Assembly (NCBI GenBank): GCA_964372635.1
Contig: CAYJQW010000001.1
Location: 4,083 to 68,082 of the forward strand
Source: an uncultured Candidatus Saccharibacteria bacterium
GTDB lineage: Bacteria; Patescibacteriota; Andersenbacteria; UBA10190
Reading direction: 5' to 3'
DNA length: 64,000 bases
Below, in pieces: positions 1 through 12,141 of the stretch (positions within the stretch are counted from its first letter, which is position 1; each line of letters opens with the position of its first letter). Under the pieces are notes generated by a model. That model searched no databases. It saw only the letters and a program-made list of their open reading frames with translations, and was not told where the DNA came from. The translations under genes and the position numbers were made by a program.

Positions 1-262
1 CCAGGACCTAACGAGGCTTTGAATCCGTAAGGAGTGTAGCCGCCAACCTCGTTCGCAGGCGTTCATACTCGTCACCTGGCGTGACCTTCTGGGCAACTTA
101 TGGGTAAGGTGGGCTGTTGAGTGGCTACGGTCATATTTTCATGATACGGGATTTGCTCCGAATTGTCCCTAAAAGTAGTCTATTATTGGCTTATCTTAGC
201 TTTTGTATTGTATCTACTTTGCTCTAATAAGCCATATTTTAGCGTTTTGTGCCATCTGGCTA

Positions 263-291
263 TTGACATTTACATACAATAGGAGTATACT
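263..291 (+). promoter_or_regulatory. sigma70-like promoter: TTGACA, 17-nt spacer, TATACT
   Basis: TTGACA at 263-268, a 17-nt spacer, then TATACT at 286-291. No convincing ORF follows for about 1.2 kb. Confidence 0.5.
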
Positions 292-456
292 GCACCGTTA
301 CGCTAGAGATGGAGGTAACGGACGAAGCGAAGCACCTTTAAACGAGTCGCCCAAGGGCGAACCTCGCCAAAGGCGGGCCACCTTAGCAAGCCCCAAACCT
401 ACGCAAGGAAAACAGCCAAAGCTAGGCAAGGGTAAAAGAAGCCCAGATATAGTCTA

Positions 457-483
457 GCCTTCGCCAAGGCTACGGCGGGCAAG
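457..483 (+). repeat. Island motif A copy 1 (gccttcgccaaggctacggcgggcaag)
   Basis: Direct repeat of the 579-606 copy. It shares the core GCTACGGCGG with copies at 2136, 7981 and 11579. Confidence 0.6.
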
Positions 484-578
484 ACCAAGGGACACCCTCA
501 GAAATGCTCCAAAATGACCCTTGACAAGATTGACTAAGTATGCTAGGATGGCCGCAACATTAAAACACCAACAGCCCA

Positions 579-606
579 GCCTTCGCATAAAGCTACGGCG
601 GGCAAG
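579..606 (+). repeat. Island motif A copy 2 (gccttcgcataaagctacggcgggcaag)
   Basis: Identical to copy 1 at 26 of 28 aligned positions, 122 bp downstream in the same orientation. Confidence 0.6.
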
Positions 607-647
607 CCGAAAGGCACCTGAACTTTTCAATCCAAAGACGGATCATA

Positions 648-666
648 AATCAAGAGAGAGACCGGC
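648..666 (+). repeat. Motif B copy 1 (aatcaagagagagaccggc)
   Basis: Matches 1104-1124 (aatcaagagagagatcctggc). The similarity extends upstream as ggatc..taatcaag. Confidence 0.45.
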
Positions 667-781
667 AACTGCAACCAGCGCCGGGGTAGAAATACCGAAG
701 ACTGGCAAGAAGCGGTTAGGTGAAGTGTCTTCTCTCTTAAAGATTAATGACACGTCAACTAGCCGCTTCTTCTATATATGA

Positions 782-822
782 GCCAGAGATTGGGTGAGAT
801 AAAATCGCACCCAGCCTCTGGC
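782..822 (+). other. Long imperfect hairpin (GCCAGAG.TTGGGTG / CACCCAG.CTCTGGC)
   Basis: A 7+6 bp stem with an 11-nt loop, read directly from the sequence. It lies in the non-coding leader. Confidence 0.4.
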
Positions 823-1103
823 CCAAGAGAGATTGATAGTAGTTTAACAATAATAAATAGTACAGCGCTGACCAGACGGTGACCTGGGATTAGAAACCAG
901 TAGCCTGGCTATGCGGGATCGTACCAAAAGCGGCAATGTGAACAGTAGGTTCACCTTCCGCCCATGTGTCCTAACAGACCAAACACTATTTAAGCATTGG
1001 GTTGCTAGCTAGGATGCAGTGGCGGAAGAATAGTTCTTTATTGAAGCGTGTTACGGTTTTAGGCAATGAAGGGATTCGATAAACTCACCCTAAAGGGATC
1101 GCT

Positions 1104-1124
1104 AATCAAGAGAGAGATCCTGGC
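1104..1124 (+). repeat. Motif B copy 2
   Basis: See 648-666. Confidence 0.45.
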
Positions 1125-1228
1125 CTAAGATAACGTAACCCACATCAAGGTTCCCCACCTATAAACGTATAGCTGGGTCTTTCCAAGCGACTGGCATGAA
1201 CCAACGTCCTGTTGAACGATGGGCACGT

Positions 1229-1250
1229 CCTGTCGTTCACGAACGACAGG
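1229..1250 (+). other. Perfect 10-bp hairpin CCTGTCGTTC-ac-GAACGACAGG
   Basis: Inverted repeat read directly from the sequence, flanked by direct gcacg. The upstream acgtcctgt is also duplicated. Confidence 0.45.
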
Positions 1251-1503
1251 GCACGGATAACAATGTCGCTCGGCTCATCGGCATCTACCTTGAAGCTGAT
1301 GCAGTATTCAGAAACCAAGGCCTGCGTAAGCGGGCCGCAGTCCAGCACTGAGCTTTGCTCTAGTGCTGTGGCATTCCCGTAAGGGACGTGGTGCGGATGA
1401 GCGGGCTTAACCACCCGATCAAACTCAGCCGCACTCGCCCCGGCTCGTTATCTGAAGTTAACGAGCTCGTAGGGATTAACCATCCGCCTAAAAAGGAGGT
1501 GTT

Positions 1504-1971
1504 ATGGTTACTTTTACACCCCGCCTCCTTGAGGCGGATGTGTTCCCGAGCGTGCTGTTCCCGGCGCGCTCCGTGTACGTCTCGTACACGCAAGCTCAAA
1601 AGGCTTGGGGACTGGTTCGGCGAAACCAGCCGTGGGATCCGAAAAATCCCTCGGAAGGAATCGCCAGGCTGCTCCGCGCCGACGTGGCGTGGGAGCTCCT
1701 GGGTCCAGACCAGAGCTGGGATGACGTGCGGTTGTATACCGCCGTCGGATCCGCCCTGGACTGGCACCGGATCGACGGCTGGATCGAATACCGTGGAAGT
1801 CAAGTCCAGCTTGACTACACGGCCAATCCGGCCAAGCTCCTCGAGGAGTGGTATGGAGATTCACTTCTCCTACCGCCGACTCTCGAGGAGCCGTTGGTTC
1901 GGGCGAAGTTGGCCGCAGTCATTGCGGACGAACTTCGCCAGGGCATGGCAGCCCGCGCTCGACCACGCTAG
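1504..1971 (+). CDS. Hypothetical protein (155 aa)
   Basis: A strong RBS (AAGGAGGT) sits 6 nt before the ATG. The amino-acid composition is protein-like, chosen over overlapping alternative-frame ORFs that are typical of GC-rich DNA. Confidence 0.5.
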   Translation: MVTFTPRLLEADVFPSVLFPARSVYVSYTQAQKAWGLVRRNQPWDPKNPSEGIARLLRADVAWELLGPDQSWDDVRLYTAVGSALDWHRIDGWIEYRGSQVQLDYTANPAKLLEEWYGDSLLLPPTLEEPLVRAKLAAVIADELRQGMAARARPR

Positions 1972-2135
1972 CGTAGTCGAGCATCGTCCCCTCTGCATAG
2001 GCACTGCCACATTACGTGGAAATGTAGAGGTAAAAAAGTGCCATCGAGCTAACTCACAGCCGTTTCTGACTGTGCCTTAGCTCTTTCCCTAGCTTCTACT
2101 TTTTAGTGAAAGTAGGCGCTTGGCGAAGGACTCTT

Positions 2136-2157
2136 CTTCGCGTAAAGCTACGAAGGG
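2136..2157 (+). repeat. Island motif A copy 3 (cttcgcgtaaagctacgaaggg)
   Basis: Matches copy 2 at 19 of 22 positions. It lies between the 1504 gene and the terminator of the 2263 gene. Confidence 0.5.
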
Positions 2158-2183
2158 TTGTATCTTTGTAGTCTTGAAGATGA

Positions 2184-2216
2184 AACAAAAAAAGCCCACT
2201 TCAAAAGAAATGGGCT
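2184..2216 (-). terminator. Rho-independent terminator for the minus-strand gene 2263..2886
   Basis: On the minus strand, an AGCCCA / TGGGCT stem with a 12-nt loop is followed by TTTTTTT. Confidence 0.5.
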
Positions 2217-2239
2217 TATATCAGTAGTTAAACCTTGGC

Positions 2240-2265
2240 TTACCCTGAGCAACGTCAAAGGGTTA
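2240..2265 (+). repeat. Motif C copy 1 (ttaccctgagcaacgtcaaagggtta)
   Basis: Contains the ACCCT..AGGGT inverted repeat. Matches 4166-4189. Confidence 0.45.
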
Positions 2266-2886
2266 CCAGAGCTCATCATTCATGATTGAGCGGAAACGAT
2301 CTTCTTGCGAGGAAGGCTCTGCTGTACGTTGTGCTTCTCGCCAAATCTTCTTATCCAGCTCGGCGCCGGTTTCTATCGGCAGCCAGCTGATGGGCAGATC
2401 AGCCAGCGATGAAGCAAAGGTGCATAAATAGCGCCGCGTAGCTTCAGTAATTTCTACTTCATCGATTTTTTCTCCTTGCATGGGAATTTTACAGAAGTAA
2501 CGGTCGCGAATAATTGTTGTGTGATCACGCTGAATCAAGAGCTCGGCTTGATCTGGAGCAATTATATTGAGCCTATCAATTTCTGCCGCTCTATCGTCTG
2601 CTGCTGCCTGCTTGGTAAATAGCGTACCGAGCATAGCAATCTCTTTTTGGTCATTGACCAGATACAGGTTAAGACAGCGACCGGTTGAATTTTGTGGAAA
2701 CTGATATGGCTCACTAGCAAAGCAAGCGAGTTCATTTGGCGTGGTTATAGCTAACGTGTCCAGGAAATCCTGAGTGGGTTCCCAGACTAAGGCCGCACGC
2801 TCTTCATTAGTGTGAACCTCCAACAGCAAAGTGCGGCTGGCAATAACGGCCAAAGTGACATCGTAATCGTTGATAATAATGCTCAT
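2263..2886 (-). CDS. Hypothetical protein (207 aa)
   Basis: An AGGAG RBS precedes the ATG at 2886 and the terminator lies downstream. No motif was recognised. Confidence 0.5.
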   Translation of the reverse strand: MSIIINDYDVTLAVIASRTLLLEVHTNEERAALVWEPTQDFLDTLAITTPNELACFASEPYQFPQNSTGRCLNLYLVNDQKEIAMLGTLFTKQAAADDRAAEIDRLNIIAPDQAELLIQRDHTTIIRDRYFCKIPMQGEKIDEVEITEATRRYLCTFASSLADLPISWLPIETGAELDKKIWREAQRTAEPSSQEDRFRSIMNDELW

Positions 2887-3159
2887 CGCATCACGTTTCT
2901 CCTATAAAAGGGGTGAAAAGAGCAAAATGGAGTGCCCAGACTATGCCATATAAACATAAATAGCGCAAGTTCAGGTGAGACACGCCTGTGTGTAAGGCTC
3001 TTACACTCAACCGTGTCTCTCGTGTGTTTACGAGAGCGACGCGGGTTCTGCAAGCGCATCAGCATCTGCGTCGTCGTTAGTTTCTCTCCAATGAAACTGT
3101 TGTCCATAGGTAGCCATGCCTATGTGATGCGCACAACGGTTTCTCGAAAGGAGAATAAC

Positions 3160-4011
3160 ATGGCTTTTTTGACTTCGAACTTGGTTGCCCCGAAGTTGAT
3201 CTCCGAGGCCTCGGCTGAAGAGATTGAAAACGTCTCTGCCCGGCTGACGCCGGAGCAGATGGACGCTTTGAACCGCGCGGAGACGCGCCGGATCGAAGCT
3301 GCCAAGGCGCAGCCAAAAAAGGAAGAGCAGCCACGGAAGGCTGCACCCGCCAACCCGAAACCTGCTGCGTTAAACCAGCAGGCCAAGGCAGCCCGCATCC
3401 TGCGGGCCAAAGGTCACCGCGAGGCGGCTCAGGCGGTGGGGGGTCAGGTGTCCCCCCGAGAAGTTATCGTGGCCCTTGAGGCTGCGATGAGGGACAAGGA
3501 AGTCCCGGGTGGCATCCGCTTTGGGCGGATCAAGCCACTTCTCAACGAGTTCGACGACAATGAGGCGCGCGACTTGTTCACGCGATTCATGAAGGAGGTG
3601 GCGCAAGCTGCCTTCGTGTTGAACTCGGCACACCTAGCTGCCGGGCAGGCTTTCTCTGCCCAGGCAGCGCTACGCCGCGCCGCTGGCGTGCGCTTTGAGG
3701 GTCGCCACATGGCGTCCATCGAGCGCATGCTCGTAGGGAATTCACTTCCCGACGAGGCGACCCGGCCATTAGCGGATTATCCGCAACTGGCCGAGGCCGT
3801 GCCATCGGCGCTCGCGGCGGCGCCGCGACGGCAGGCTAGAACCCTGCTCACTGGCCTGACGAACCCCCTGTGGGCCATCGTCAAGCCGGCTATCGAGCAG
3901 GCTCGGCAGAGCCAGACTAGGGTTAATAACCCAAAATCTGGCTTTTCCGGTGCAAAAACCGGAAAAACCGCCCGCAAAAAGGCGGCTGCCGTGGCGCAAA
4001 AAAATTCCTAG
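3160..4011 (+). CDS. Hypothetical Ala/Lys/Arg-rich protein (283 aa)
   Basis: An internal ATG at 3160 follows a GAAAGGAG RBS. The ORF-track start at 2932 lacks an RBS. The C-terminus is basic. Confidence 0.5.
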   Translation: MAFLTSNLVAPKLISEASAEEIENVSARLTPEQMDALNRAETRRIEAAKAQPKKEEQPRKAAPANPKPAALNQQAKAARILRAKGHREAAQAVGGQVSPREVIVALEAAMRDKEVPGGIRFGRIKPLLNEFDDNEARDLFTRFMKEVAQAAFVLNSAHLAAGQAFSAQAALRRAAGVRFEGRHMASIERMLVGNSLPDEATRPLADYPQLAEAVPSALAAAPRRQARTLLTGLTNPLWAIVKPAIEQARQSQTRVNNPKSGFSGAKTGKTARKKAAAVAQKNS

Positions 4012-4079
4012 TGCAAGGACGCACTAGGTCAGGCTTTACATGTTGTGCCTGACAACAAACAATGTGGGTTTCTGAAGAT

Positions 4080-4108
4080 TGTGAAGAAAAATTGGTTTTT
4101 TTTCTTCA
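4080..4108 (+). terminator. A/T-rich hairpin terminator (GTGAAGAAAAA-ttgg-TTTTTTTCTTCAC)
   Basis: An 11-bp stem that includes a T-run, immediately after the stop at 4011. A second hairpin at 4027-4052 is GTCAGGC / GCCTGAC. Confidence 0.5.
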
Positions 4109-4165
4109 CAACTTCACGGAGATCGTCATTTGACAATCAGGTTTACTTTCAAACAAAGCCGAAGT

Positions 4166-4189
4166 TTACCCTGAGCGAAGTCGAAGGGT
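4166..4189 (+). repeat. Motif C copy 2 (ttaccctgagcgaagtcgaagggt)
   Basis: Matches 2240-2265 at 21 of 24 positions. Confidence 0.45.
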
Positions 4190-4383
4190 GGTTTGCGTGA
4201 AGGAGACGTAGTGCTCGTGAGTTTTTTTACTCATGTGCATCCGCCCCCTTCGTGGTTCGAAGGATAAGGCCAGCTATTGTCCGTACCTCAATTGCTGGAA
4301 GTGTTCATTTTTTCTCCTTGGGTTTGCCATTCCCAAGGCGGTACGAGATACGTTCACCTTGAAGAAAAAGAAAGGAGAACACT

Positions 4384-5202
4384 ATGGCAAAAAATCTGTG
4401 TTTACGTGTGTCTCGACACACAAACCAGGTCGAGCCGCGCCTAGCGGCGCTGCGTCCCGTCTTCGGATTGGACGTAGAAATACATCATGAGGATGTACAA
4501 TACCGCGGTAATCCGCGACAGGCCATACAGGCTGTCCTTGACCGACTGAAGAGTGAAGGCCACCAGGTCGTCGGGGTCGAGGTGGTCGGCGGCGCCGACA
4601 TCCTTGAACAGCTCGTCGGCCCAAACGGCTTAGAGCTCCCTGTATTGCAAGCGGAATTTGCCCGCGACGTCGAAGGACAAATCAAGACGGCGGGCAAAGA
4701 AGCTGGCAGTGGCCGAGACGTATTTGCCTTTGGGCGATATGTCCAGGTCAAACGAGCTGGTGTTAACAAGCGCCCGTTCGAGGCAGCTGATCTACCCGTC
4801 TCGGGGTCAATCCGCGTGGGTTGGATCAGTCGCGACACGGATGAGCAGCTCGTTGACATGCGCCGCCAGGCGCTCGAGCATCTTCTACCGGGTCGGTCGG
4901 TCGAGCTGGTCGTCTTCGACTGCAAATTCGGAGATGACCCATTAACGGCCATCAAGGCGGCGTTGCCTGATGGTCTACACGCCCTGGACCCCGGCGCTGG
5001 CTTCGTTTACACGAAGTTGGTCGGCGACCGCGGGTCAAGGTTGGGAGTACCGGTTTTGAACGCTCGCTTTGAGTGTGAGCCGGGAAGCCGCCGGGCCAAA
5101 GTTGTTGGCCAGGATTCTCGTGGACGTGATATCCTCGCGTTTACGGGATACGACTTGGTCGAGAGCCTCGTGCTCGAGACCGAGCCTCTTGTTGGGTCAT
5201 AG
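4384..5202 (+). CDS. Hypothetical protein (272 aa)
   Basis: An AAAGGAG RBS precedes the ATG. This is the first gene of the + strand run. No motif was recognised. Confidence 0.55.
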   Translation: MAKNLCLRVSRHTNQVEPRLAALRPVFGLDVEIHHEDVQYRGNPRQAIQAVLDRLKSEGHQVVGVEVVGGADILEQLVGPNGLELPVLQAEFARDVEGQIKTAGKEAGSGRDVFAFGRYVQVKRAGVNKRPFEAADLPVSGSIRVGWISRDTDEQLVDMRRQALEHLLPGRSVELVVFDCKFGDDPLTAIKAALPDGLHALDPGAGFVYTKLVGDRGSRLGVPVLNARFECEPGSRRAKVVGQDSRGRDILAFTGYDLVESLVLETEPLVGS

Positions 5203-5222
5203 GGCTCAGCAAGCTGTTAAAT

Positions 5223-5254
5223 TAGGGGAGTGTTGGTTTCTAACCTCCCCTCTA
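5223..5254 (+). terminator. Terminator-like hairpin (TAGGGGAG ... CTCCCCTCTA) followed by a T-rich tract
   Basis: A 7-8 bp GC stem, then ctttgttcctctc. It lies between the genes ending at 5202 and starting at 5325. Confidence 0.3.
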
Positions 5255-5324
5255 CTTTGTTCCTCTCAAATCATTTTGAGATGTGCAATGTTGATAAGTT
5301 TTCAAAATTCCAAAAAAGGAGGAA

Positions 5325-6269
5325 ATGATGAAAATTCAGATCCAAAAAAACGCCGAGTTTAAACTGCTTTATTTTGAACTCAGCGTCTGGGGAGTCAACC
5401 CCAGTGTGGTCGCCCATAAAATCAATGAGGTGGCCGAGCAGCTGGCTGGACCGGAAACGGTGCTGCTGCGCGGACAGGGTCCGGTGTGGGTGTACGCGAT
5501 GCTGACGCACGCGGCCCATGCTTGCCCCAATGTGGCCACCTTCGAGCCTCGCAAGGAAGGGTTCGTGGTGGCAACGTGTCACAACGGCCGTTGGCTGCCG
5601 GGCGAGGTCATTCCTGCTGCCACCATCGGTATGATGGTGGATGGCGGGAAAATCGTGGGTGGTGACGAGTTCATGGAGCGACCACGGTTGGTCATCTCCG
5701 TGGGCGGTCCTGCTCACTCCGGCAAGTCAATCTTTCTGGCCGAACTGTACCGACAGCTGCTGACCAGAATGCCCGGTGAGGTATTCCTCCAGCGGGCATG
5801 CCCAGATGGCGAGGGGATGTGGTCGGCGGAGTCTGACCCCACCTTGGCGCAAGCCATTCGCCAGAAGGGCAAGTTCACGGAGAATTTCTGCTCATGGTTG
5901 GCCGATGCCATCCAGGGACTCAAGCGGGGTTTCAAGATCACCCTGCTCGACTTGGGCGGCAAACGGTTGCCACCCAATGACGAAGTTCTTCAGCATTCCA
6001 CCCATCTTCTGGTTCTTTCCTCCAACGAGGATGAGACCAAAGCCTGGATGGAGTATGGGCGCGAGCACGGCTGCGAAATCATCGCTGCTTTTTCTTCTCG
6101 CCTCCTCAAGCTCGAGAGCGGTGAGCTTGATGCAACCGTCCGCTCCTCGGTGAGCCTGACTGCCGAGCCGGTACAAGGGGAAATGGTGAATCTGGACCGT
6201 GGTGGTCCGGTCACTCCCTATCAGGAAGCTATCAGCCAATTTGCCGACTGGTTGATCGCCAAGGTATAG
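5325..6269 (+). CDS. Two-domain P-loop NTPase: an unknown ~130-aa N-terminal domain plus a kinase-like P-loop domain
   Basis: AAAGGAGG RBS. A Walker A motif is present in VISVGGPAHSGKSIFLAELY, and a Walker B-like ITLLDLGG follows. The N-terminal domain (KLLYFELS...GQGPVWVYAMLTHAAH) was not recognised. Confidence 0.6.
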   Translation: MMKIQIQKNAEFKLLYFELSVWGVNPSVVAHKINEVAEQLAGPETVLLRGQGPVWVYAMLTHAAHACPNVATFEPRKEGFVVATCHNGRWLPGEVIPAATIGMMVDGGKIVGGDEFMERPRLVISVGGPAHSGKSIFLAELYRQLLTRMPGEVFLQRACPDGEGMWSAESDPTLAQAIRQKGKFTENFCSWLADAIQGLKRGFKITLLDLGGKRLPPNDEVLQHSTHLLVLSSNEDETKAWMEYGREHGCEIIAAFSSRLLKLESGELDATVRSSVSLTAEPVQGEMVNLDRGGPVTPYQEAISQFADWLIAKV

Positions 6270-6408
6270 TCGGTAGGTTTCTTTTCCGGTTTGCATGTTT
6301 CTCTAGCCTTAAAACATGCCTGATCCGAGAGTGCGTACTCTCGCTGACGAGTCTTAAAAAGACGAAATCAGAAACTAGCACGTTTCCAATTGAAACGGAG
6401 ATGCTGAG

Positions 6409-6753
6409 ATGAAAATACTGTGGATGTCGCGTCATACGCCAACTCCCCGGCAGCTTCAAGCGCTGCGGGAGAGACACGGCGAAGACACGGTTGTGGAGCA
6501 AGAATCCAAACCGTTCGATGACGCGCGGCAGATCGCCCGTCGGTACCGCAGCGGTAGCTATGACGATATTGTAGTCGTGGCACCACTTTCGGTAATTGAC
6601 GTTCTGTGCAAAGAAGGCATTCAGCCTCTTTGGTCAGAGGCAGCCGAGGAAAACGATCCGAAAAAGATTGAATTCCGCGGTGCCCGCGGACAGGGCTATC
6701 GTTTCGTTCGGTTCCGCCGCATCAAGTGCGTGCGGATTGAGTTCGAAGACTGA
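6409..6753 (+). CDS. Small hypothetical protein (114 aa)
   Basis: A GGAG RBS is present. The stop lies 22 nt upstream of the AAA+ gene start. The N-terminus, MKILWMSRHTPTPRQLQAL, looks alpha/beta-like. Confidence 0.5.
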   Translation: MKILWMSRHTPTPRQLQALRERHGEDTVVEQESKPFDDARQIARRYRSGSYDDIVVVAPLSVIDVLCKEGIQPLWSEAAEENDPKKIEFRGARGQGYRFVRFRRIKCVRIEFED

Positions 6754-6774
6754 TTCCAAACAAAGGAGAAAACC

Positions 6775-7989
6775 GTGAACGATTTGTTGCAGAAGGCGAT
6801 CGCTCTGGCGCCGAAAGTTCAGAGCACTGCACATGACGTGCAGACCCGGCACATTGGACGCAGCGACGTGGTGCAAGCCGCGTGGCTGTCACTCGTGTCG
6901 GGCCGTCCCGCGTTTTTCTTGGGGAGCCCCGGTATTGATAAAACCGGGACGATCCAGGACATGGCGCGGCGGATTGGCGGAGCTGTCTTCTATGACGTGC
7001 TCATGCCGACGATTGTTTCAGTGGAGCAGCTGCTCGTCGAGTCTACCTCGATCGAGGAGGTGCCCGCTGCCAACGGCGGCAAAGCCATCCGCACCCGTGA
7101 CACGCTCGGACGGGCAGCGCTGGCGCACCTGCTCTTCGCTGATGAGATCTGGAAAGCGGAACCTCGCGTTCTGCAGACCCTGATCGACTTGAGCAAGGGC
7201 GACGGTGTGCGACATGAAGGTCAGATGGTAAAAACACCACTCCTGGCTTTCCTCGCTGCCAGCAACGAACTGCCGGAACCCGAGGGCAACCTCGGTGCCG
7301 TGTGGTCCCGCATGACCATCCGTGTGGTGGTCAACCCGCTGGATCGCGCGGGCAAGCAGTCGTTGGTCAAAGCTCGTCTGAACCGGAGTGCCAACAGTGT
7401 TTCGTCTGCAGCTCAGCTCACGCTGGCTGACGTCGAAATGCTGCGGGCCGCCCGGCGTCACGTTGATGTTCCGCAAGGTGTCGTTGATACCGTGCTGGAC
7501 ATTTACCAGGAACTGCTCGACGACAAGTCGGCAGATTTTTCCTGGGCGTGGTCAGACGATCGCCGCTTCGGACGCGTGTTCGATGTACTGCAGGCCAAGG
7601 CACTGCTTGACGGCCGCACAACGGTCGGCAAGCACGATGTGGCGGTGCTGGAGTGGCTGCTCTGGGATATTCCCGAGCACATTCCGCTCGTCAAAGCCAA
7701 GCTCGCGCCGTACTGCCGGACGTCGCTGTCTGAGGCAGTTGAAGTGGTCGATGCTCTGCTGTCCCCCAGCGGAGTGGTCGAAACGGTTCGCAAGGGGGAT
7801 CGGCTGAAGGGTGTTCAGGCCATCACGCAGTGTGAGGCCGCCCTTTCCGAACTCAAGCGTCTCCAGAGCGAGGCGGACAGTGTGATGTCTTCCAAGATTG
7901 CTGACCTGGTTAGCCAGGTGGAAGCGGTCAAGCAGGACGTCTTCGCTGTTGTGACCGGGGCGCGAAAACCCCAGCCGGCCTCCGCGTAA
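6775..7989 (+). CDS. MoxR-like AAA+ ATPase (AAA_5 type)
   Basis: GTG start after an AAAGGAGA RBS. Walker A is GSPGIDKTG. Walker B is LLFADEIWKAEP, followed by the VLQTLIDL helix. Sensor-1 is LAASNELPE. The C-terminus has a coiled-coil extension. Confidence 0.7.
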   Translation: MNDLLQKAIALAPKVQSTAHDVQTRHIGRSDVVQAAWLSLVSGRPAFFLGSPGIDKTGTIQDMARRIGGAVFYDVLMPTIVSVEQLLVESTSIEEVPAANGGKAIRTRDTLGRAALAHLLFADEIWKAEPRVLQTLIDLSKGDGVRHEGQMVKTPLLAFLAASNELPEPEGNLGAVWSRMTIRVVVNPLDRAGKQSLVKARLNRSANSVSSAAQLTLADVEMLRAARRHVDVPQGVVDTVLDIYQELLDDKSADFSWAWSDDRRFGRVFDVLQAKALLDGRTTVGKHDVAVLEWLLWDIPEHIPLVKAKLAPYCRTSLSEAVEVVDALLSPSGVVETVRKGDRLKGVQAITQCEAALSELKRLQSEADSVMSSKIADLVSQVEAVKQDVFAVVTGARKPQPASA

Positions 7990-8007
7990 AGCTACGGCGG
8001 CCAAGGG
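7981..8007 (+). repeat. Island motif A copy 4 (tccgcgtaaagctacggcggccaaggg)
   Basis: The motif's TAA is the stop codon of the AAA+ gene. Its 3' end runs into the GGGAGG RBS of the VWA gene. Confidence 0.55.
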
Positions 8008-8015
8008 AGGTAACC

Positions 8016-9686
8016 ATGAACGAGAAAAAACTTAAGTCTCTCTCGAGGCAAGAGTTACAAAAGCTCTTGGTGTCGGACGCGGATGCTTTCACAGCATTGC
8101 GTTATCTGCGACACCGAGAGGCAGTCCCGGTGCTTCCCGAGCTCGAGGAGCAAGGACAGGATGTTCTTCCCGGAAGCGAAGGAGTGCTCGCGGATCTCTA
8201 CTACGGATTGTGGAATCCGGAGCCTACCCTCAAGGATGAGGTAGCGCCGGATCGTCAGTACTGGCAGCAAATGTTAGGCCAAACGATTGAAACATCGGCC
8301 TATCAAGAGCTGCACGCGGCCACGCAACTCAAGGAGCTGCAGTCAATTCTCGGGACAATCACCATGGGCGAATCTGTCCTGGCGATGGTGCCGAAGAAAG
8401 ACCAGCAAAAACTCCAAGAGGTGCAGGAAGCGTCCGAAGACGCCAAGGATTTGGCGGAAACAGCAGCAGAGGCCGAAGCAGCAGCGCAAGCTGCCCAGCA
8501 GTTGGCTTCAGCCGCCGCCAAGGCTATGGCCGACAAGGATGCTGTCCAGCAAGGTTCGGGCTCGCCCGCCGGAGCGCAAGCGAAGGCGGGTCAGATGGAC
8601 CCAAAGCAAGCACGAGAGTTGGCCAATGAGTTGGCTTCGGCCGCCGCCAAGGCTATGGCCGACAAGCAAGCAGCTCAGGAGTTGGCTCAAGAAGCTAAAG
8701 ACCGTGCCCAAGAACTTTCTAAGAAGTTACTGGGCAAGCCGGGTAGTGAGCAAGCGGAGCAAAAACTTCGTGAGCTCACCCGCATCGGTTTACAAGCCGC
8801 GCGTAACGCCCAAGCTAAGGTGGAGGAGGTTTCCGAAACCATCGAAGCCTGGGGTTTGGAGCAAAGTGAGCTGACACGCCAAGGGATTCCCGAGGCGCTG
8901 GCGCTACTTCAGCGCATGAAGCGCAATGCAGCGCTCAAGCAGTTCGCCGGACTTCTCGGCCGCCTTCGCAAGATTGCGGCTCGGAAGGCTCGCTCTAAAA
9001 CAGCCGGAGAAGGAGTGCGGGTCACGGTTCCGGAAACGGGCCGGGATATTCGCCGCGCTCATAGCTCTGAGCTGGTTGCGCTTGTTCACCCAGCACTCCG
9101 CGTTAAAGGATTGACGCGTTGGGCACGTGGTGAACTGCGGTTGGTTGGTCAGCGCACGAAGCAGAAGCTTGGTCATGGACCGGTCATCGTCTGTGAAGAC
9201 GGATCCGGTTCGATGGAAGGAGCCAAGCAGCAGTGGGCAAAGGGAGTGACACTGTCACTCGCTCACTATGCGAAACTCCAAAAGCGGTCGTTCGGGTGGG
9301 TACTCTTTGATAGTGCTGTAAAGCAATCAAGGAATTATCCGCAAGGACGATTGACTGCCGAGCACATGCTTGAACTGGCCGAGTCGCGGGCCGGTGGCGG
9401 AACTGACTTTGAGTCACCGCTTAGAGCCGCCATCGAAATGATTCAGAAGGAAGGCCTTAAAAAAGCCGACATCTGCTTTATCACTGATGGTGAGTGCGCA
9501 GTCAGCGACGAGTTCCTTCGGGAATTTCTGGCGGTCAAGAAGACGTACGAGGTCAACGTGTTTACAGTTCTCTGCGATGTTGGCTCGACGTCTGACGCGA
9601 CTGTTCAGCAGTTCTCGGATCAAGTGGTTCGCGCTTCAAGCTTCACGGCAGAAGAAGCTGAGGTTGCGGTGTTTGGTTCTTTATAA
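8016..9686 (+). CDS. VWA-domain protein with a MIDAS motif and an Ala/Gln-rich coiled coil
   Basis: GGGAGG RBS. The C-terminal domain has the VIVCEDGSGSM MIDAS motif (DxSxS) with the later conserved T and D residues (GGTDFE, FITDGE). The central segment contains an internally duplicated LASAAAKAMADK. Confidence 0.75.
   Translation: MNEKKLKSLSRQELQKLLVSDADAFTALRYLRHREAVPVLPELEEQGQDVLPGSEGVLADLYYGLWNPEPTLKDEVAPDRQYWQQMLGQTIETSAYQELHAATQLKELQSILGTITMGESVLAMVPKKDQQKLQEVQEASEDAKDLAETAAEAEAAAQAAQQLASAAAKAMADKDAVQQGSGSPAGAQAKAGQMDPKQARELANELASAAAKAMADKQAAQELAQEAKDRAQELSKKLLGKPGSEQAEQKLRELTRIGLQAARNAQAKVEEVSETIEAWGLEQSELTRQGIPEALALLQRMKRNAALKQFAGLLGRLRKIAARKARSKTAGEGVRVTVPETGRDIRRAHSSELVALVHPALRVKGLTRWARGELRLVGQRTKQKLGHGPVIVCEDGSGSMEGAKQQWAKGVTLSLAHYAKLQKRSFGWVLFDSAVKQSRNYPQGRLTAEHMLELAESRAGGGTDFESPLRAAIEMIQKEGLKKADICFITDGECAVSDEFLREFLAVKKTYEVNVFTVLCDVGSTSDATVQQFSDQVVRASSFTAEEAEVAVFGSL
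8502..8666 (+). repeat. In-frame 36-bp direct repeat inside the VWA gene (8502-8537 and 8631-8666)
   Basis: The two copies match at 35 of 36 nt and are spaced 129 nt apart. Each encodes LASAAAKAMADK. Confidence 0.7.
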
Positions 9687-9695
9687 GGTTTCTGT

Positions 9696-9724
9696 GAGAC
9701 TAGATGTCTGCCGCATCTAGTCTC
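9696..9724 (+). other. Perfect 11-bp hairpin GAGACTAGATG-tctgccg-CATCTAGTCTC
   Basis: It starts 10 nt after the VWA gene stop. It has no U-tract, so it is either a rho-independent-like structure lacking the tract or a protein-binding palindrome. Confidence 0.45.
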
Positions 9725-9815
9725 CTCTGTCTCCCGGTGTGTTACTGGGACTGATGAGACTTACAAAGTCGAAACAGAGGACATTTACAACATTCCACGA
9801 CGAAAGGAGCCTACC

Positions 9816-11408
9816 TTGGCGTCCCAACTTATCGTTTCGCTGGAAGCCAGGGAAGGCAAAAACCCTGGTGAGGCGATTGGTACTTACCAAAGGTGCCACA
9901 TCGTCTTCTTGCCCCACGGGACGCCGGTCGACGTCACTGTCAGGGTTGTGCTGGAAGAAATCACAACTAAAAAAGACAGTGCCGGTCGGACGATGTACCG
10001 TGGCGTGCCAGCCCCGGTTGAGTACAGCGATCGCTGGAAAAACAATGGCGACGGAACGATCTCCAAGATCACCGTCTCCAAGGACTGGCTTGGTACTGAT
10101 TGCGAGGAAGGCATCATTGAAACACGCCAACTCGCAACACGTGAGGGTGCTCCGTATACTCGAACTGAGCGTCAGGTACGCTGGGGTTCTACCTTGGCAG
10201 CCTGCACTGTTGATGTCGCTGACATCACGACCATTCCCACGGAAGTGGAGATGGTGCAGAACGGGCAGCTCGGCTGGCGAAAAACCAGCGAGCGGGAGGA
10301 GAAATCTTCATGCTCTGTGTCAGTCACGGACGTGCGAGTGACGAGCCTGGACAGCACTGTGTGGCAGTCCTCGTATCCGTCTGAGTGGCAGCTTTCGGCA
10401 GCAGTAGACCATGATGGTACAAGCATCTCGGTGCGTGTGCCGTGGTCGAATGCACCGAAGGAAGTGCGCGAGCGGATCGAGAATCGCTACCCGGTCTGCG
10501 TCTGTGGTCGCCAGCGTTACGACGTGCAAAATTCCGACGGCTACCTCAAGTGCGAGAAGTGTCGGGAAGAAGAGCACTGCGTGCGTTGTGGCAAGCAGGC
10601 AAAGGTTGCGGTCATCAGTAGTCGCTTAATTTGTGCGAACTGCAAACCGTATGAAGAGCAGGAACAACTCGTTAATCGAGTTTGCTCTGTTCAACAGCGG
10701 CAAGCACTAGCGCAACAAGCGACGCGGCTCTTGGCAGGTAATGCCGTGCCGCGCGAAGCTGGTGAAGCGATCATGCGCTCTACGCTTGGTCACGTTGAGC
10801 CGGAATGGAAACGAAACGACCTCGCACAGAAACATGCCGGGTACGCCTGGTACTACTTCTGCGATGAGGGCGTCTACGGTTCCAAGTTTCCTTCGGCGGC
10901 TCTGCAGATTCTGCAGGGATTGTCGGAGGCATCCGGAAACGGCGTGGTCGAGTTGGTCGCATGGCTGACAGGCTACCAGAAGGTTGATGACTGTGAGCGG
11001 TATGGAGATTTCTTCTGCCGCACGCAGGTGAGGGGAGAGACTGTCACTCCCACCTTGACTGAAAGCAGCCTGCAACGGCTGATCTTGACAGTGAAGCTGC
11101 GAGGTTCAGAAGCTGATCGCATCGAGGTATTGCAAAAGTATCGGGCTATGACCGAAAGGCCGTACCCTGATGCCGAGCAAACAAGAGCAGTCGCAGATAT
11201 CCTGAGCAGCGATGCGCAGGACTATGCGGCGGCACTGGCCAAGATGCGCGAGGCGGAAGAGCTTCGTATGGCACAAGAGCAGAGGAAGCAGCAAAAGCTT
11301 TTTTCTTCTCAGTCAACACCTGTTACTCCCACCGATAAGGACGAGAGTAAGCAGCGGGGACTGGAAAATCTGCTCAACAAGTGGGGCGACCCCCACAAAA
11401 AACAATGA
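9816..11408 (+). CDS. Hypothetical 530-aa protein with an N-terminal TRAM-like beta-barrel and a Cys4 zinc ribbon
   Basis: TTG start after an AAAGGAG RBS. The N-terminus GEAIGTYQRCHIVFLPHGTPVDVTVRVV follows a TRAM-like pattern. A CxxC-(13)-CxxC cluster sits at residues ~230-250. Additional CxxC pairs (CVRC ... CANC) follow within ~30 residues. The C-terminus is a Gln/Glu-rich coiled coil. Confidence 0.55.
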   Translation: MASQLIVSLEAREGKNPGEAIGTYQRCHIVFLPHGTPVDVTVRVVLEEITTKKDSAGRTMYRGVPAPVEYSDRWKNNGDGTISKITVSKDWLGTDCEEGIIETRQLATREGAPYTRTERQVRWGSTLAACTVDVADITTIPTEVEMVQNGQLGWRKTSEREEKSSCSVSVTDVRVTSLDSTVWQSSYPSEWQLSAAVDHDGTSISVRVPWSNAPKEVRERIENRYPVCVCGRQRYDVQNSDGYLKCEKCREEEHCVRCGKQAKVAVISSRLICANCKPYEEQEQLVNRVCSVQQRQALAQQATRLLAGNAVPREAGEAIMRSTLGHVEPEWKRNDLAQKHAGYAWYYFCDEGVYGSKFPSAALQILQGLSEASGNGVVELVAWLTGYQKVDDCERYGDFFCRTQVRGETVTPTLTESSLQRLILTVKLRGSEADRIEVLQKYRAMTERPYPDAEQTRAVADILSSDAQDYAAALAKMREAEELRMAQEQRKQQKLFSSQSTPVTPTDKDESKQRGLENLLNKWGDPHKKQ

Positions 11409-11578
11409 AAAATATTCTTGTTGGAATTGTTTGTTCCATCAAGCAGGAAATTCTGGGAAGCGCCTGGCATTATGCAAAAGCTTCCCTTCTTCTTACAGTC
11501 AGCAAGTATTGCTTGTCGGCTGTAATCAAGAAATACTACATGTAGCCGCTATGAGGCTGCATAGTCAGCGTCTTCCAC

Positions 11579-11599
11579 CGTCGCGTAAAGCTATGGTGG
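11579..11599 (+). repeat. Island motif A copy 5 (ccgtcgcgtaaagctatggtgg)
   Basis: Core cgcgtaaagcta. It lies in the GC transition zone at the right edge of the island. Confidence 0.45.
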
Positions 11600-12141
11600 A
11601 CGCCGTGGGAATCGAATGATTAAATCGATGCGATCCGTCCGCCAAAAAAGCGGATTCTATCTCTCTCTTGATCCCGTAAAATCGCCGTTGGCGGTCACGG
11701 GAGGTAACAAAGATTTGATGATTCGTATAATTTCTCAGGCACTGCTGGCTTGCAGCCTTGTGGCGGTTATTTTTTATTTTGCCCTTTGTGTCCGGGTTTT
11801 TTATCTGGCTTTTCCGAAATTCGGTATTGCCAGTTCGCCGGTTACTTGCTCTAATCCCCCAGCGCCAAAGGCTTCGGAGGGACACAGTAAGGTTCTAACT
11901 TGCTTCTTAAAGGCGGACTTTCTATTAAGAGAAGAGAGGTATCTCCTCTCTCATGACGTTTGCTACTCTCACTGCTCTCACCTCATTCAGTTTCCTCAGG
12001 TTTCGAGATGAACTAGAAAATTCGAGTCATATTAATTTTACATTACTAAATGGTGGCTGACCCATTCCCTACCCTGACTCCATTACCTACCCCGACTGTT
12101 TTTGGTTTATTGATCTTTTCGATACACTATAGAGTAAATTC

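Follow-up and report, generated by a model that had tools for sequence, protein, structure and literature searches.

A putative long, structured 5' leader at the head of a MoxR/VWA/Csx3-type cassette in a Patescibacteria-like genome

Long structured 5' leaders of bacterial messages, which act in cis and sequester ribosome-binding sites, and the kilobase-scale RNAs OLE, GOLLD, ROOL, HEARO and raiA are the described systems closest to the locus reported here, a region free of open reading frames (ORFs) at the left end of a 64,000-nt stretch of DNA (hereafter the window; contig CAYJQW010000001.1, assembly GCA_964372635.1). We propose that positions 263-1503 of the window are probably the promoter and a long untranslated 5' leader of a ~12-kb MoxR/VWA/Csx3-type transcription unit of Patescibacteria-like genomes, in which transcription is predicted from the sequence. 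With the long 5' leaders, the region shares a strong promoter, hundreds of untranslated nucleotides, conserved hairpins near the 5' end and a helix that would bury a Shine-Dalgarno (SD) sequence and a start codon. Nevertheless, no ligand-binding or antitermination family of Rfam fits it, and it differs in being exceptionally long and mosaic, in being followed by a gene that is not conserved, and in that structure continues through 12 kb of coding sequence. OLE, GOLLD, ROOL, HEARO and raiA resemble it in combining an ORF-free region of kilobase scale, many hairpins, GNRA loops and a mobile or accessory locus, but no Rfam 15 model matches the present region, a minority of which is conserved.

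On the protein side, the cassette resembles the MoxR-vWA ternary conflict systems as they appear in excerpts of Kaur, Burroughs, Iyer and Aravind 2020 (PMC7159879): it likewise encodes a bpMoxR-type AAA+ ATPase, then a vWA protein and after it a third, large protein, with Csx3, which the excerpts list as an RNase effector in such systems, nearby. In contrast, the third protein of the cassette showed neither a beta-propeller nor a known effector domain. According to the same excerpts, organisms of the candidate phyla radiation (CPR) were excluded from the organism-level (multicellularity) statistics; neither a conserved upstream non-coding region nor pervasive RNA structure is met in them. The present locus offers a concrete non-coding element, composed of a promoter, a purine-box hairpin and a 73-nt hairpin, at the start of a cassette of Patescibacteria that is widely conserved and unstudied.

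The ORF-free region and its conserved core

The original prediction for this DNA placed a near-perfect sigma70 promoter at 263-291 in front of a region with no credible ORF, and both parts were borne out. The promoter is the sole site with an 11/12 match within the window. As ~1.75 sites of this quality are expected by chance per window (~0.014 per kb per strand), the match alone proves nothing; it becomes credible by being kept in relatives of the cassette. Among the nine relative loci fetched, which are labelled L185, L188 and so on, all eight with enough upstream sequence carry a promoter of at least 11/12 on the cassette strand in their ORF-free left region (Table 1), and this region measures 0.4-1.9 kb in every one of them.

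The region itself is non-coding by several measures. The periodicity of GC over codon positions is 0.04-0.12 across 1-1200, against 0.2-0.5 in the neighbouring genes, six-frame Pfam scans of the leader region gave no match, and the small ORFs in it have non-coding-like codon-usage scores; nor do these measures reveal remains of a decayed gene (pseudogene). A faint periodicity at 1200-1500 fits an 89-aa ORF on the minus strand (1145-1414), which retrieved only itself, and no homologue, among 5.8 billion proteins. The leader is not a missed N-terminus of the gene that follows it, ORF155, because the alignment of the ORF155 family starts at its own ATG. No intrinsic terminator was found on the plus strand between 291 and 1503. 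Thus a promoter lies upstream, in the orientation of the genes, with neither an ORF nor a terminator in between. An Rfam/Infernal scan, which had been suggested along with the original prediction, placed no family in the leader: Rfam 15 at the gathering threshold recovered three tRNAs only from the whole window, and at E <= 1 the matches in 1-2400 were chance ones outside or across the hairpin, with just a chance microRNA match inside 297-1503.

Part of the region has a counterpart in L188. Window positions 282-346 align at 76% identity with positions 320-382 of the ORF-free region of L188 (4166-4736; nhmmer E 0.003-0.006), positions 633-684 align at 79% identity, and 703-830 can be aligned as well; the blocks 282-346 and 633-835 are collinear between the two (nhmmer E 1.5e-11), whose MoxR proteins are only 73% identical. 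In L188 the first two blocks abut with nothing between them, so that 347-632 is an insertion in the window relative to L188. The hairpin at 703-775 retains 20 pairs unchanged between the window and L188, with two one-side changes and two compensatory changes, and in an RNAalifold alignment of the window, L188 and L192 both sides change in 5 of the 22 pairs with pairing kept. The next hairpin (779-832) resembles L188 in sequence, with a poorer retention of its pairs in the MAFFT alignment, and no counterpart of 955-1124 was found in relatives. A purine box resembling the motif B core, (A/G)GGAGAGA, stands 70-100 nt after the promoter in L185, L188, L190, L192 and L194. The homologous stretches hold no conserved protein-coding frame, a possibility that the original prediction had raised against itself, and nothing conserved there is coding.

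The repeats and hairpins named in the original prediction are real, albeit with corrected extents. The two copies of motif A, given as 27 nt, are longer (451-491 and 573-614), the two copies of motif B lie at 640-661 and 1096-1117, the long hairpin placed at 782-822 spans 779-825, and the 10-bp palindrome at 1229-1250 is perfect. The expectation that the repeats are conserved in related elements held in part: the motif B core and the hairpin 703-775 are kept, but the motif A pair lies in the lineage-specific insertion. The similarity of its two copies outruns the element (47-nt self-match, 81% identity), and hence the pair is a local duplication, with units of 45 nt each. The insertion also contains decayed motif fragments and a second promoter-like site. 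Not named in the original prediction are a third CAAGAGAGA box (824-832), an inverted AAGAGAGA (731-738) and many hairpins besides the two that it lists. A stretch of 460 nt contains three plus-strand copies of CAAGAGAGA, where 0.53 would be expected in the entire 64 kb, and the loop of hairpin 703-775 can form 9 bp with the motif B boxes. Folding z-scores from dinucleotide shuffles are -6.6 for 630-850 and -7.2 for 1180-1480, while 297-660 and 901-1140 are unstructured. Over the start of ORF155, an 8-bp plus a 9-bp helix can form, in which an anti-SD sequence, CCUCCUU (1524-1530), stands opposite the SD. Scans of viral contigs for motif B and for the palindrome 1229-1250 gave no matches. Separately, a 22-nt inverted repeat (98-119 and 569-590; 82% complementary) brackets the promoter region and enters motif A copy 2; it may be due to chance or represent the ends of a small inserted element.

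If these features are read together as a leader, its ancestral core would comprise the consensus promoter, ~50 nt of 5' sequence, the GAGAGA purine-box hairpin and the 73-nt hairpin (282-346 and 633-835). The core may act in cis on the nascent transcript as a recognition or processing platform, and such a platform could determine how stable the operon RNA is or how it is read through; the complementarity of the motif B boxes to the loop 728-745 would allow alternative pairings. Two lineage-specific additions would then have been made: the 290-nt A-rich insertion with its two locally duplicated selfish hairpin copies, and a 3' chain of hairpins (836-1540), the final helix of which may bury the start codon of ORF155 together with its ribosome-binding site. 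As both would be enclosed in this helix, translation of ORF155 is predicted to be gated.

Table 1. Coordinates of features in the window and in the relative loci
Feature	Position	Strand	Remarks
High-GC, hairpin-saturated cassette	1-12000	+	GC 0.52-0.58, against 0.41-0.45 in the rest of the window
Sigma70-type promoter, TTGACA-17-TATACT	263-291	+	11/12 consensus match
Putative 5' leader block	282-346	+	-10 box and first ~50 nt of the predicted transcript; 5' hairpin 297-319
Insertion, A-rich, unstructured, lineage-specific	347-632	+	AT skew +0.44; folding z ~0
Motif A copy 1	454-483	+	CTAGCC, loop TTCGCCAAGGCTAC, GGCGGG, tail CAAG; family HMM E 1.5e-10
Second promoter-like site, TTGACA-17-TAGGAT with TG	521-549	+	inside the insertion
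Motif A copy 2	576-606	+	loop TTCGCATAAAGCTAC with 1-nt insertion; family HMM E 4e-8
Motif B1 hairpin	within 637-696	+	purine box AATCAAGAGAGAGA in loop at 648-661
Hairpin, then GAAA-tetraloop hairpin	662-684, 685-696	+	3' of motif B1 hairpin
73-nt conserved hairpin	703-775	+	apical loop 728-745 complementary to motif B boxes
47-nt hairpin, then third CAAGAGAGA box	779-832	+	hairpin 779-825; box 824-832
Hairpin, then motif B2 hairpin	955-1124	+	955-1028; 1093-1124 (GGGATC, loop, GATCC)
Chain of seven hairpins	1186-1466	+	includes palindrome 1229-1250; z -7.2
Two GUAA-tetraloop hairpins	1319-1336, 1375-1386	+	
Helix enclosing ORF155 SD and ATG	1481-1540	+	SD 1494-1500, ATG 1504; z -5.5; -29.8 kcal/mol
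ORF155	1504-1971	+	uncharacterised protein family; not at this position in relatives
Motif A family copy	2131-2157	+	compensated stem CTCTTC / GAAGGG
Motif A family copy	7975-8005	+	between MoxR and VWA; ends in VWA SD
Motif A family copy	11574-11600	+	TCCACC GTCGCGTAAAGCTAT GGTGGA; near right end of cassette
Equivalent promoter, L185	5273		at least 11/12
Equivalent promoter, L188	4466		at least 11/12
Equivalent promoters, L189	3504, 3595		at least 11/12
Equivalent promoters, L190	1241, 1327		at least 11/12
Equivalent promoter, L192	2713		at least 11/12
Equivalent promoter, L193	6810		at least 11/12
Equivalent promoters, L194	2709, 2767, 2828		at least 11/12
Structured block, L185	4.8-17 kb		cassette inside mur/ftsW cluster
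Structured block, L188	4.8-14.4 kb		cassette next to murL
Structured block, L190	1.2-15.6 kb		
Structured block, L192	2.4-11 kb		cassette near phosphoglycerate mutase gene
Structured block, L193	7.2-15 kb		
Cassette, L189			near rpsT, uvrB
Toxin-antitoxin-type pair region, L188	7422-8905		
Toxin-antitoxin-type pair region, L192	11478-13043		
Toxin-antitoxin-type pair region, L189	14884-15434		
Toxin-antitoxin-type pair region, L194	15381-17066		
In-frame motif A, examples			loci L021, L024, L131, L130

Folding of the sense strand through the cassette

Genome-scale ordered RNA structure (GORS) is an excess of folding energy over many kilobases of positive-strand RNA virus genomes, coding regions included. 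The cassette likewise bears excess structure that is kilobase-scale, coding-inclusive and specific to the sense strand, although it is made of DNA-encoded bacterial genes and not of an RNA genome. In a 120-nt sliding analysis, z averages ~0 over the 52 kb of chromosome, whereas in the first 12 kb, coding sequence included, the means per 1.2 kb run from -1 to -4. Synonymous-codon shuffles, which keep both the protein and its codon usage, were applied to the genes of the window and to control genes. The resulting z-scores are -4.0 to -10.5 for the cassette genes except ORF207 (-3.2), +0.35 to -1.05 for the housekeeping genes of the window and +0.5 to -3.6 for control genes from other organisms. 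The density of strong local hairpins is 11.6 per kb within the cassette and 1.2 per kb elsewhere. The sense strand of the cassette genes folds better than the antisense strand and forms about twice as many G-U pairs, and GNRA tetraloops cap 10 of the 78 tetraloop hairpins on the plus strand, compared with 2 of 78 for the minus strand; elsewhere the proportion is 6 of 227.

The structured block, as seen by dinucleotide-shuffle z, is also present in L185, L188, L190, L192 and L193, with flanks near 0 and independently of GC. It begins at or just after the promoter in each of the four compared for its start (L188, L190, L192 and L193). In the window, GC falls sharply at ~12 kb, from 52-58% to 41-45%, coinciding with the end of the block.

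The hairpins of the leader thus appear to be the visible tip of a larger phenomenon, ~12 kb of coding sequence whose synonymous sites would maximise pairing of the sense strand. We tentatively suggest, as a possibility short of a firm proposal, a transcription unit of 10-14 kb, running from the leader on and starting at the conserved promoter, in which selection has made the whole sense strand, coding regions included, fold as a row of adjoining hairpins, a property conserved with the cassette in Patescibacteria-like genomes; motif A, alongside, would be an undescribed, cross-phylum selfish hairpin element with a conserved loop. If this is the case, the cassette would be a bacterial counterpart of GORS in RNA viruses, and it is attractive to speculate that folding protects the cassette messages against the single-strand-specific RNase encoded with them (Csx3), against Rho or against RNases of the host. 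The folding might instead reflect an RNA stage in the life of the element. Selection on RNA structure, if genuine, raises the question why one operon needs such folding.

Alternative explanations for the region

Several observations weigh against a leader. Demonstrable conservation amounts to ~270 of 1,200 nt and comes from one relative, a third genome having the hairpin only, and window positions 836-1503 have no detectable counterpart in relatives. The gene directly after the leader differs among relatives, so that a role specific to ORF155 cannot be ancestral, and upstream regions are short at the ORF155 homologues elsewhere. Terminator-like hairpins stand 100-170 nt after the promoters of L190 and L194, which hints at short separate RNAs instead of a leader, and within the leader both strands fold equally well, so that palindromes acting at the DNA level are possible there. 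A rival view is that the conserved core encodes one or several separate non-coding RNAs, which would work in trans with the proteins of the cassette, for instance as partner or substrate of Csx3 or MoxR-VWA, instead of running on into the genes as a leader. The core is short and lies at the 5' end, what follows the ORF-free region is variable, and L190 and L194 compress promoter, purine box, hairpin and a terminator-like stem with a U-run into 100-170 nt. We regard this as unlikely, if conceivable, for the window has no plus-strand intrinsic terminator in 291-1503, its structured block runs unbroken into the genes, and no Rfam family was found. Apart from the promoter, the region might instead be non-functional spacer, accreted from mini-elements, local duplications and palindromes, with hairpins that have no role. 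Such an origin would suit the insertion 347-632, made of selfish hairpin copies and a local duplication, the 3' part unique to the window genome, the equal folding of the two strands and the varying length of the ORF-free region; it is rather improbable nevertheless, as conservation of the core equals or exceeds that of the neighbouring coding DNA and includes compensatory changes, GNRA loops are strand-biased, and chance would not readily produce the helix of 8 bp plus 9 bp over the start of ORF155.

The original prediction had offered a non-coding RNA locus, an iteron-type replication origin or a regulatory hub of a mobile element. The first and last of these are supported, given a 12-kb cassette of foreign composition that occupies differing sites with its promoter conserved and part of the leader kept in sequence and structure. 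In the form of a regulatory or recombination hub acting at the DNA level, the palindrome 1229-1250 and the CAAGAGAGA boxes, of which three are direct and one is inverted, would be protein-binding sites, namely operators or arm-type sites next to a tRNA. The strong clustering of the boxes, the perfect 10-bp palindrome and a cassette that begins ~290 nt from a tRNA 3' fragment and sits at different sites in relatives all speak for such a hub. We judge it very improbable, as neither an integrase, a recombinase nor a DNA-binding regulator was found in the cassette, the tRNA end has no direct repeat in the window, and the placement of the boxes, in loops of hairpins and with complementarity to a further loop, is more in keeping with RNA. 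An iteron-type or DnaA-dependent origin is hardly credible. Its favourable signs are the repeats and an AT-rich stretch (130-300), whereas the checks proposed for it, on GC skew, DnaA boxes and iteron periodicity, all came out without an origin signal: there are no DnaA boxes in the region (two in the whole window, with seven expected by chance), no tandem repeats (the spacings being irregular at 123, 174, 282 and 456 nt), no inflection of the skew and no gene for a replication initiator. An origin is thus excluded as far as nucleotide data go. The leader of the cassette remains the reading that we prefer.

Motif A, ORF155 and the setting of the cassette

Motif A is a sharply bounded unit of 30-31 nt, CCCGCC TTCGCYAARGCTAC GGCGGG CAAG(C), with a conserved 14-nt loop (UUCGCYAARGCUAC in RNA form), a conserved 3' CAAG and a 6-bp stem that varies freely. 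In an 18-mer scan of viral contigs (IMG/VR), the similarity of the matches extended well beyond the seed, and a 21-mer scan of species-representative genomes gave at least 120 loci; the matches listed include Patescibacteria, Acidobacteriota, Planctomycetota, Verrucomicrobiota, Bacteroidota, Chloroflexota, Proteobacteria and other phyla. Motif A is nearly identical across these phyla and viral contigs and is not species-specific. An unbiased scan, in which loop and tail were fixed and the stem was left free, returned 38 copies; in 34 of them 5-6 of the 6 stem positions are paired, with 29 different combinations of arms, whereas the mode of a slid control is 2-3. Counts of pyrimidine and purine at the inner stem pair are also matched (C 72 and T 50 against G 70 and A 52). 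As the stem varies and yet pairs, with a constant loop, the stem is structural and the loop sequence-specific. The few G-T and A-C mismatches in the stems did not decide on which strand the hairpin forms, and orientation relative to genes is only mildly biased.

The copies lie between genes, just before start codons and in frame inside proteins, and those of the window are all confined to the cassette. The in-frame form reads ..P(A/S)FAKATAGK.. in ValRS-, MetRS- and LigA-like genes and in a Ser/Thr kinase, and also ..LRQGYGGQ..; the frame without offset is enriched (35, against 13-14). In occurring as a hairpin repeat both between genes and in frame within unrelated conserved proteins, motif A is like the Rickettsia palindromic elements (RPE), a likeness that concerns the insertion pattern only. 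As a short interspersed hairpin-forming repeat it also recalls repetitive extragenic palindromes (REP) and the bacterial interspersed mosaic elements (BIME) and MITEs (miniature inverted-repeat transposable elements). Nevertheless, REPs have the opposite pattern, loop and CAAG being conserved and the stem variable in motif A, which also lacks the terminal GTAG or CGTC tag of REP/RAYT elements (compare excerpts of PMC3733652). The REP/RAYT class was rejected for motif A on account of the variable stem, the cross-phylum spread and the lack of a recurrent neighbour, a RAYT gene elsewhere in the genomes not having been searched for. No recurrent protein family or transposase was found beside the copies. 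Rfam has no such family (best E 2.4 for the canonical element; 18 loci give no shared family), and searches of the literature by sequence, peptide and run accession returned nothing; judged by Rfam and the literature search, motif A would be an undescribed family. Two further observations were made on it. Many copies (L092, L129, L065, L086, L134, L048, L124 and L011) are flanked on both sides by arrays of 6-8-nt tandem repeats, which differ per locus (CCCCAAG, CTGGACC, GGTCAGG, CTAATAC and others). The VWA gene of the cassette contains two decayed in-frame copies (..AAAKAMADK..; 8512-8537 and 8641-8666) within a 129-nt internal duplication.

ORF155 could be taken for an orphan from a word-seeded protein search, which retrieved only ORF155 itself and missed its family completely; an exhaustive HMMER search overturned this, with 111 representatives at E <= 1e-3. 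The family, of ~140-200 aa, has the motifs GYTG, QPWDP, LYTAVGSPLD and DVT.NP.K, and ORF155 has no Pfam match; an AlphaFold model of it computed without an alignment was unusable (pLDDT 36). Homologues elsewhere lie among gyrB and aminoacyl-tRNA synthetase genes, and their loci bear no similarity to the leader. The gene is absent from the cassettes of L185, L188 and L192, and L188, L192 and L194 have an unrelated protein of 134-174 aa in its place. At one homologue, in L141 (3870-3911), a TTGACA-17-TATACT promoter ends ~13 nt before the ATG, which suggests a leaderless or near-leaderless message there, compared with the predicted 1.2-kb leader here.

The variable left part of the cassette holds ORF155, ORF207 (minus strand), ORF283 and ORF272, and the genes between leader and core are not shared among relatives. 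The conserved core consists of Csx3-AAA, ORF114, MoxR, VWA and ORF530 and is common to L185, L188 and L192, with only the AAA part of Csx3-AAA being shared. Within it bpMoxR (PF20030) precedes VWA_2, and the third protein, ORF530, has no recognisable domain. Csx3 was the only match of the cassette proteins in PHROGs and PADLOC. The codon usage of the cassette differs from that of the housekeeping genes; from 12 kb onward the chromosome (~43% GC) carries dnaE, gyrB, pheT, ligA and thrS. MoxR has homologues of 97-80% identity and many more at 62-74%, several of the latter named Patescibacteria or CPR by their sources. In eight relatives the cassette is found again, at chromosomal sites that differ and have unrelated neighbourhoods. 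When the region was compared by blastn with records of plasmids and phages, no match emerged.

A Logan contig (L001) is identical to the window and reaches 286 nt further left. By eye, its positions 1-72 (286-215 nt left of the window) resemble the 3' part of a tRNA (Tyr-like, with a GTA anticodon stem) cut by the contig end, on which ARAGORN made no call. An integrase-mediated island at this tRNA was considered and rejected, since neither an integrase domain nor a direct repeat of the tRNA end is present in the window.

Two observations on the relatives may be added. In L194 (2709-3000) and L190 (1241-1560), two to three tandem promoters of 11-12/12 lead into a GGAGAGA box, then a hairpin and then a terminator-like stem with a U-run, an arrangement that may represent short RNA genes at the position of the leader. 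Pairs of toxin-antitoxin type (HEPN/nucleotidyltransferase, ParE/MazE, PIN, HicAB and HigB) appear inside or beside several of the cassettes.

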